Of a DNA stretch of 64,000 nucleotides, positions 40,827 through 40,965 are shown one piece after another. Below the pieces are notes generated by a model that made no database searches, was not told where the DNA came from, and worked only from the letters and a program-made list of their open reading frames with translations. This DNA comes from an uncultured Rickettsiales bacterium (GTDB taxonomy: Bacteria > Pseudomonadota > Alphaproteobacteria > Rickettsiales > UBA8987): NCBI GenBank assembly GCA_964445765.1, contig CAYULD010000002.1:139505-203504 (forward strand), in the 5' to 3' direction. A program made the position numbers and the translations under genes. Numbering within the stretch: the first letter of the stretch is position 1; every line of letters begins with the position of its first letter.

Positions 40827-40965
40827 CCCCTCTCCCCTTTTATAAGAGGAGAGGGTTAGGGTGAGGGGATGGGATAAGTAACATTAAAAACCCTCACCCA
40901 GCTTAATCTAACTTTCTTTGAAAGTAAGATTAAGCAACCCTCTCCCTTTAAGAAAGAGCGAGGGG
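40827..40965. repeat. cluster of family-B GC-rich hairpins, one of them split by a nested AT-rich palindrome
   Basis: cccctctcccc-ttttataa-gaggagaggg plus ttagggtgagggg is an inverted B copy. It is followed by ccctcaccc + [agcttaatctaactttc-tt-tgaaagtaagattaagc] + ccctctccctttaagaaagagcgagggg. Confidence 0.7.

Follow-up and report, generated by a model that had tools for sequence, protein, structure and literature searches.

Triplex repeats of the BoxC/PIT family bracket DUF559 nuclease genes across bacterial phyla and may be the ends of an unrecognised mobile element

BoxC, also described as PIT or TM_ECO, is an intrastrand-triplex repeat with the pattern CCCTCNCCC-N3-6-GGGNGAGGG-N3-GGGNGAGGG (Holder et al., 2015; PMC4666352). 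Escherichia coli MG1655 carries 23 TM_ECO copies, five inverted doublets among them, and 3610 copies are spread over 262 proteobacterial genomes; in vitro the G-rich strand folds into a stable triplex, and the loci and their flanks are hypervariable among E. coli strains, in which the repeat is described as always intergenic (PMC4666352). The reported numbers vary widely, with no TM_ECO in Salmonella, 143 units in Enterobacter asburiae LF7a against fewer than 30 in E. aerogenes, and 29 in E. coli 55989 against 1 in IHE3034 (PMC4666352). Earlier work on the family found no promoter or terminator activity, and no associated transposase, integrase, phage or plasmid has been reported (PMC4666352). 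Here we analyzed a 64-kb stretch of contig CAYULD010000002.1 from an uncultured Rickettsiales bacterium (the window, by whose numbering positions are given), in which a sequence-only reading had noticed a dispersed family of GC-rich hairpins with tails. The window units are BoxC/PIT/TM_ECO repeats and not a new family. The repeat itself was already known; new are its Rickettsiales-like host lineage, its coupling to DUF559, and its in-frame, unspliced residence in essential genes such as valS. On balance, we think it probable that DUF559 and the inverted triplex repeats around it form a compact selfish element of which doublets and solo units are gene-less copies. More tentatively, and somewhat short of probable, BoxC/PIT/triplex repeats throughout Bacteria would be the ends and gene-less offspring of an unrecognised mobile element with DUF559 as its only gene, lodging unspliced in ValRS, IleRS, HscA and RecJ.

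Repetitive extragenic palindromic (REP) sequences, REPINs and their RAYT proteins (together, REPtrons) are short palindromes with a conserved tail that are scattered through intergenic DNA as singlets and inverted doublets and flank their single-copy cognate gene. The DUF559 gene is likewise flanked by inverted units, on both sides at 59 of 77 loci, and the REP-like role proposed by the sequence-only reading is a fair functional analogy. The flanked protein differs, however, being a PD-(D/E)XK Vsr-like DUF559 nuclease here and an HUH/Y1 (IS200/IS605-like) transposase in the case of RAYT, and window-type units also enter coding sequence in frame and carry a mirror-repeat third block. Rickettsia palindromic elements are selfish sequences of about 100–150 bp that lie in frame in Rickettsiales housekeeping genes, adding a conserved family-specific peptide to a protein that is kept, and contain no enzyme gene (PMC10969869). 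The valS insert is likewise in frame, stop-free and in a housekeeping gene, whereas the units described here, judged against that description, are shorter (35–45 bp), GC-rich, common to distant phyla and accompanied by a nuclease domain. Vsr-like EDxHD homing endonucleases (I-Bth0305I; PMC3239194) also place a Vsr-superfamily nuclease in conserved essential genes and, as with homing endonuclease genes, our inserts are patchy among relatives and repeatedly occupy one site; unlike them, the valS insert contains neither an intein domain nor a group I intron, and it is bracketed by inverted triplex repeats. Transposable elements of the miniature inverted-repeat type (MITEs) share the terminal inverted repeats and the excess of gene-less short derivatives over full copies, but are usually AT-rich and longer than these units (PMC10969869), and from MITEs and DDE transposons the present loci differ in having no transposase neighbor and no detected target-site duplication.

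With E. coli BoxC/TM_ECO the window units share the three-block architecture, an identical main-subtype sequence, the 'tta' type A loop, inverted doublets with inward tails, a dispersed distribution and GC richness regardless of genome composition. They differ in residing in a Rickettsiales-like genome of 33% GC, in being translated within valS, and in bracketing a DUF559 open reading frame (ORF); in addition, a cousin subtype (CCTCCCC / GGAGGGGG) departs from the literal pattern while keeping the mirror design. E. coli BoxC is reported to be strictly intergenic and to lack an associated mobility gene, whereas two units and a degenerate hairpin of the window are translated beside DUF559. Residence in valS is an extension of BoxC family behavior and no ground for excluding these units from the family.

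Linkage of the repeat to DUF559 genes

We examined 80 loci from GTDB genomes carrying the closest relatives of the window DUF559, including Bacteroidota, Neisseria, Melainabacteria, Chloroflexota, Nitrospira, Legionella, Coxiellaceae, Xanthomonadales, Spirochaetes, Elusimicrobia and the candidate phyla radiation (CPR). Many DUF559 homologues start with ..GEGxGEG and finish with PSPxPLPxGEG, which are the repeats in translation, and the DNA of three such loci had a hairpin and G-tail upstream and a C-tail and hairpin downstream. Nearly all DUF559 genes in the 80 loci were bracketed by units. Hairpins with a pyrimidine arm occurred at 8.74 per kb within 150 bp of DUF559 vs. 0.23 per kb elsewhere in the same loci, a 38-fold enrichment; besides the loci with hairpins on both sides, 17 of the 77 had them on one side and a single locus on neither. 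About 80% of the oriented units pointed their tail toward the DUF559 gene. The two flanks of a gene also resembled each other: upstream and reverse-complemented downstream sequences scored a median of 41 within a locus vs. 19 between loci, and a flank's own partner was its best match in 37 of 74 loci. DUF559 genes of distant phyla are thus linked to one unit family as matched inverted pairs, and the sequences strongly support a physical and evolutionary coupling of triplex repeat and nuclease. No second conserved neighbor gene, RAYT-like or transposase genes included, was found in these loci (the largest neighbor cluster covered 5 of 80), and our literature search found no paper linking DUF559 to flanking repeats.

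From these loci we built a covariance model, R1, on 23 units of identical geometry that flank DUF559 genes of unrelated bacteria and include no window sequence; identical geometry was chosen since a mixed-length MAFFT alignment had left the 3' arms out of register. Pair covariation in the R1 alignment (100% pairing) was not used as evidence, because the units had been selected for perfect stems and the count is circular. Run on the window with filters off, R1 returned as significant matches the copies pointed out by the sequence-only reading, cousin subfamily included (E = 1e-6 to 2.5e-3), and no further locus at E < 0.01; a row at E = 0.013 was the hairpin of the 57074–57110 unit on the opposite strand. 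A model from other bacteria therefore recovers both the copies and the proposed single family with its related subfamily. The short word CCCTCACCC occurs seven times in the window (0.10 expected) and CCCTCTCC five times (0.53 expected), although the seventh CCCTCACCC match (16919–16927) lies in enolase coding sequence (LEGEGK), is unmatched by R1, and was rejected as a unit. Counting R1 matches and readable tail-plus-hairpin structures, the window holds eight units and one degenerate hairpin. In the genomes of the 80 loci, R1 also found distal solo units and empty doublets (e.g., L064 5659/5718, L056 2271/2336, and L077 85/128).

In each unit a loop joins a homopyrimidine arm to a homopurine arm, and a spacer of 2–3 nt leads on to a purine tail mirroring the latter. 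What had been called the tail is the third block, a mirror repeat, of a potential intrastrand triplex. Mirror identity between tail and arm was 0.75–1.00 in five window units, with a value of 1.00 at 50652–50691, and averaged 0.883 over 87 DUF559-flanking units vs. 0.779 ± 0.009 for permuted pairs, whereas alignment of tail and arm as direct repeats was barely above the permuted value (0.793 vs. 0.775). The perfect mirror symmetry of the cousin units (CCTCCCC..GGGGGAGG plus GGAGGGGG) marks them as a co-varying subtype of the triplex design. The exact TM_ECO pattern was found in 19 of the 80 loci and in the window at 57076–57108 (minus strand); a relaxed version (loop of at most 14 nt, at most one mismatch per block) also fits 40828–40867 (plus) and 10714–10746 (minus). 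The literal pattern fails for the unit at 12310 and the cousin units, for which R1 gave E-values of 2e-4 to 9e-6. Units have 55–68% GC against 33% for both the genome and the 64-kb window, and the family stands far above chance, as the sequence-only reading had held. Since the DUF559 ORF in valS (30% GC, 25% at third codon positions) matches its host, the repeats are under sequence constraint and not merely recent imports, and have kept their composition while the ORF drifted to that of the host.

The same association is visible in E. coli K-12 (NC_000913.3 1347500–1353500, our locus L114, region 3541–4340), where the DUF559 gene ycjD has a CCCTCTCCC..GAGGGGG hairpin at its end. About 60 nt past ycjD lies a duplicated fragment of the DUF559 3' end in tandem, followed by a full unit (L114 3704–3742, R1 E = 1.9e-8) roughly 165 nt upstream of fabI; the 22-mer GGAGAGGGTTAGGGTGAGGGGA at window positions 40848–40869 is identical in the unit beside ycjD. 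The hairpin, the duplicated fragment and the unit are unannotated in RefSeq, and sites similar to the 56-nt ycjD unit number 16 in the median E. coli genome, none of them annotated. BoxC was reportedly first noted near envM (fabI). DUF559 as a whole is large, with 24,323 clusters at 50% identity, and has been placed in one group with VSR (PMC3424549). Because 2.9 million viral contigs (IMG/VR) yielded only 22 DUF559 loci, phages are not its main home. One phage-like contig (L006, Logan SRR15198274) carries DUF559 at 3001–3552 with units on both sides, between a terminase/unknown gene pair and a topoisomerase-like gene; an extra unit lies upstream, and an insertion parts hairpin from tail.

Repeat subtype and DUF559 similarity were weakly linked (47.8 vs. 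47.2% identity, p = 0.013). Such a weak link would fit a protein that recognises structure and not sequence, or a gene hopping between resident repeats.

The valS insertion and its counterparts in other genes

In the window the insertion is hosted by valS (55448–58810, minus strand), which encodes an archaeal/Rickettsiales-type valine-tRNA ligase (ValRS) of 1120 aa, where relatives have about 850–900. NCBIfam PRK13208 matches it at E = 1.9e-299, with the best stretch at residues 2–560 (profile positions 4–474), and C-terminal residues 759–1092 match the ValS model NF000540. Alignment with insert-free ValRS proteins defines an in-frame insertion of 194 aa (56534–57115, minus) without stop codon, in a surface loop between SSKGINLG and YALNPTRH. 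Residues 637–747 (56570–56902, minus) are a DUF559 domain (PF04480; Vsr-like PD-(D/E)XK nuclease; Pfam E = 8.9e-42, PDB 3HRL E = 2.4e-28) in which 19 of 19 invariant columns of a 38-sequence family alignment are kept, and which is by these residues intact. A Pfam scan of the insert returned DUF559 alone, with no Hint/intein domain at E ≤ 1; no NUMOD or helix-turn-helix DNA-binding region was detected in it, and an Rfam scan of the window returned one tRNA only, with no family over the repeat units and no group I intron. With neither a Hint domain nor a group I intron, the insert should stay in the mature ValRS. A tblastn search of the window found no second DUF559 copy; its sole DUF559 domain is the one flanked by units.

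Read along the coding strand, the insertion contains an exact TM_ECO unit, about 35 nt, a cousin unit, a linker of ~75–100 nt, DUF559 and a decayed hairpin, an order that brings both dispersed repeat subtypes together at the nuclease gene. The first unit, at the N-terminal end (57074–57110, plus, R1 E = 9e-6), has on the coding strand a hairpin, aag and GGGTGAGGG, and is translated as SLSLREREGVRA. The cousin-subtype unit (56977–57026) was matched on both strands (E = 5e-4 and 7.6e-4), has a tail on each side, and gives TPLFFSPRLRGEIVGGV in translation. A degenerate hairpin, CTCTCTCCCagaggtaGAGGGG (56541–56563, minus), was read directly from the sequence at the 3' end; it was undetected by R1 and is probably a decayed right-hand unit without tail. 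The sequence-only reading had correctly located a copy (57075–57110) inside valS, but understated the case, as two valS units sit in the 194-aa DUF559 insert.

The long valS ORF is an insertion and not an assembly error; the protein is also on record in an NCBI assembly, and an identical gene occurs in an independent short-read assembly. Window DNA was found at 100% identity in two Logan short-read assemblies, with the identical valS in one from a different run. Of the four ends of the two Logan contigs (L001 = 40921–50579 and L087 = 50665–59572 of the window), three fall inside or at the edge of repeat or palindrome regions (40921, 50579, and 50665), the first within the unit at 40890–40965 and the last within that at 50652–50691. 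Such stops, a hint that the units are multi-copy, would fit either multi-copy k-mers or coverage lost because of the hairpins.

Among the 120 best homologues of the window ValRS, the closest (P0122, 74% identical, 854 aa) has no insert, whereas 20 carry DUF559 in frame. In P0122 numbering the inserts occupy three sites, ~222 in 8 proteins, ~340 in 2 and 506 in 11 including that of the window; one protein holds two DUF559 copies. Four further inserts at site 506 are repeat-only and 33–43 aa long. In one case the DNA was informative: in a 23-kb locus of a Rickettsiales metagenome-assembled genome (MAG; GCA_028223895.1, our L111) all four R1 matches lie within valS (10001–13180), two flanking DUF559 at site 222 and two forming an empty doublet at site 506. 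The doublet reads hairpin-tta-GGAGGGGGG, a 30-nt spacer, and CCCCCTCCC-tag-hairpin, a clean inverted pair that shares its subtype with the full element at site 222 of the same gene, and its architecture is that of the two intergenic doublets of the window and of the E. coli doublets. A faint likeness of its spacer to the inner ends of the full element hints at an origin by deletion.

Same-site DUF559 copies were 53.8% identical vs. 52.3% for copies at different sites, and close relatives share inserts; for same-site pairs DUF559 and ValRS identity correlated with rho = 0.46, a comparison that does not separate vertical descent from repeated invasion of site 506. On these sequences, site 506 may have been re-invaded repeatedly or may be ancient with losses. 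On the N-terminal side of site 222, the homologue P0198 has five tandem KPSPSGRGLGEGTTE before its DUF559 insert; these are translated units, implying that units can also amplify in tandem inside a coding region.

The module is not confined to valS. In hscA, the gene for an Fe–S Hsp70, of an organism with 35% GC (L115 6820–7300, Logan SRR35563317), an in-frame DUF559 module aligns with the window valS insert over about 510 nt, with 2 differences in a 48-nt stretch across the cousin unit, so that one module lineage occurs in two genes of two organisms. The hscA domain has ELEG in place of the catalytic motif ELDG and may, by that change, be inactive. At site 506 of another valS (L112 11100–11160), a very similar cousin unit (CCCCCCAC-nnn-CTCCCCCCGC..GCGGGGGGAG-aaaaa-GAGGGGGG, common to both) is inverted relative to the gene when compared with window 56977–57026, which could reflect inversion through the palindrome or independent insertion. 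About a third of the 150 best DUF559 family representatives are long proteins, and those examined hold DUF559 internally with repeat-derived peptides as flanks; the hosts checked are HscA, IleRS-like, RecJ, another ValRS, type I restriction-modification S subunits and an Eco57I-like methylase. DUF559 was also seen within a peptidase M14 and a Der-like GTPase. Inserts are therefore present in some relatives and absent from others, and the same module is found in different genes.

Units, doublets and neighboring genes in the window

Two inverted doublets with inward tails (40826–40965 and 50652–50773) and two solo units make up the intergenic copies. The first doublet lies in the gyrB–dusB spacer. 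Its left unit (40826–40869, minus) is the best R1 match (E = 1e-6) and reads on the plus strand as a hairpin CCCTCTCC..GGAGAGGG, tta and the G-tail GGGTGAGGG, with a type A loop; this copy, already noticed as inverted, is the left half of a pair. The right unit (40890–40965, plus) is real but split, with a C-tail at 40891–40899, an AT-rich hairpin at 40901–40935 (16-nt arms, 94% complementary) and an imperfect main hairpin at 40938–40964. As a single strand, 40820–40972 folds with z = -8.65. The proposal that one palindromic element had inserted into another holds in so far as tail and hairpin are parted by an AT-rich palindrome; insertion is possible but weakened as an explanation, because the 37-nt palindrome has no other copy in the window and units beside DUF559 genes elsewhere recurrently show, as a variant, an additional hairpin between the tail and the main one (L017, L059, L039, L020, and L067). 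The palindrome may be a variable module and no element in its own right.

The cousin doublet consists of a left unit at 50652–50691 (minus, R1 E = 9.2e-6), with CCTCCCC..GGGGGAGG and the mirror tail GGAGGGGG, and a right unit at 50734–50773 (plus, E = 2.9e-5); its 57-nt arms (50650–50706 and 50719–50775) are 75% complementary. It is enclosed in a nested palindrome of ~310 bp (50550–50860) between nuoB and an ORF of 1007 aa, with three inverted-repeat layers, outer pairs at 50550–50574/50836–50860 and 50585–50608/50808–50831, and a fold z of -6.5. The outer repeat ATGGGCTAGTTA has no window copy beyond the pair around this doublet.

Of the solo units, that at 10712–10748 (plus, E = 2.5e-3) has the C-tail CCCTCACCC, a taa spacer and a weakened hairpin, and lies between murF and murE, 45 nt past the murE stop. 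The other (12310–12351, plus, E = 2.2e-4), composed of CCCTCACCC, ctg, CCCTCT, a 14-nt loop and AGAGGG, has its end 3 nt past the pth stop and lies 55 nt upstream of where murE starts. The intergenic copies do follow minus-strand genes, as had been observed, at 3–45 nt past the pth, dusB and murE stops. A terminator role fared less well: one of five intergenic units has a T-run (40855–40828, minus), and scans of 10600–12400 found none.

Window gene content includes murF, murE, pth, eno, gyrB, dusB, clpB, nuoB/D and the archaeal-type valS; the named ValRS proteins closest to that of the window come from Rickettsiales and Rickettsiaceae MAGs, and around valS there is little synteny with the nearest relative (L088). 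Directly upstream of valS, a PIN-domain ORF (58807–59190), whose stop overlaps the valS start, and a small ORF (~59190–59440; 81 aa in L087) look by arrangement like a VapBC-type toxin-antitoxin pair. Large ORFs are found at 51090–54113 (1007 aa), without match in an NCBIfam search, and at 29866–34854 (1662 aa).

Mechanism, competing explanations and significance

As we picture it, the element would be about 450–600 bp long, with the DUF559 (Vsr-like) nuclease as sole protein and the units as terminal inverted repeats. Its full copy in the window would be the insert that lies in frame within a tolerant ValRS surface loop and is translated as part of the enzyme, and the doublets at 40826–40965 and 50652–50773 and the solo units at 10712–10748 and 12310–12351 would be non-autonomous copies or relics. 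DUF559 would recognise the folded repeat (as hairpin, triplex or junction) and nick or cut there, and repair or replication would bring copies of the repeat pair, ORF included or not, to new sites. Insertions in essential genes would be seen only where they are in frame and in a tolerant loop.

Several points weigh against this picture. We know of no DUF559 protein for which nuclease or transposition activity has been demonstrated, and PDB 3HRL is annotated merely as 'endonuclease-like'. The 80 loci were chosen as closest relatives, so the linkage holds for this DUF559 subfamily only, and the weak correlation of subtype and protein is hard to square with their tight co-evolution. E. coli has 23 units and a single DUF559 gene, and the authors who described them found no mobility function (PMC4666352). 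No clear or convincing target-site duplication was found at the valS junctions of the window or L111, a possible TAT in L111 being too short. Finally, the right end of the valS element is decayed and the hscA and L112 copies lack the right unit; with right ends decayed or missing, these copies may be stranded and immobile.

The main rival, which we consider doubtful, is homing into pre-existing doublets. DUF559 would then be a free-standing homing endonuclease gene whose target is an empty doublet, cut between the tails and copied in with the repeats as homology arms, and the repeats would spread or arise otherwise, by slippage at structured DNA or through an unknown enzyme. Suitable targets exist, as empty doublets with 16–45-nt spacers occur in the window, in the L111 valS and in L064, L056 and L077, as well as in E. 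coli (Table 1 of PMC4666352), and homing endonuclease activity is proven for Vsr-like EDxHD enzymes (PMC3239194). The preponderance of inward tails around DUF559 suits such a target, although about 20% of oriented units have the opposite orientation. The weak link of protein clade to repeat subtype suits a gene hopping from one resident repeat to another, a second DUF559 3' fragment stands in tandem with ycjD, and, more circumstantially, site 506 is recurrently used and also holds empty doublets. Homing leaves the arrival of repeat-only units at new sites, such as the ValRS loop, unaccounted for; moreover, unit, linker and ORF all lie within the ~510 nt common to valS and hscA, which indicates that the module moved as one piece.

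An improbable alternative takes the repeat as a structural element serving the cell, at transcript ends, in mRNA stability or replication pausing, or in generating variation, with DUF559 a repair nuclease that merely happens to be near. Intergenic copies just 3' of genes, one of them terminator-like, the stable in vitro triplex and the hypervariable loci of E. coli (PMC4666352), and the repair function of Vsr (PMC3424549) are in its favor. It does not explain, however, why units lie in frame within essential genes together with the nuclease ORF, why left and right ends match privately at each locus, or why inserts vary in presence among relatives, and no promoter or terminator activity is on record in the literature (PMC4666352); only one of five intergenic units has a T-run.

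That DUF559 is an ancient ValRS domain, inherited vertically in Rickettsiales with GC-rich linkers as flanks and intergenic look-alikes, is very improbable: occupation of the site 506 loop in 11 ValRS lineages, the moderate same-site identity correlation and the host-like composition of the ORF would suit it, but the insert is missing from the closest relative and from about 100 of 120 homologues, three sites are in use with two copies in one protein, same-site copies are no more alike than those at different sites, the same module is found elsewhere in hscA, and R1 scores intergenic copies as well as those in valS.

For the window alone, the outcome is simpler: a known repeat accounts for the hairpins, and an insertion for the long valS ORF. 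If the proposed DUF559 element is real, it would let two long-standing puzzles explain each other: the BoxC/PIT/TM repeats, known since the 1990s in hundreds of genomes and marking unstable loci, and DUF559, a very large family including E. coli YcjD and Neisseria 3HRL, with a solved structure and no known function. A second enzyme class, the PD-(D/E)XK nucleases, would join the REP-type repeat systems, and a nuclease gene would have a route into essential proteins without an intein, a point of weight for the annotation of 'fusion' proteins in endosymbiont MAGs. The two would be parts of one selfish element, directly testable in E. coli K-12.

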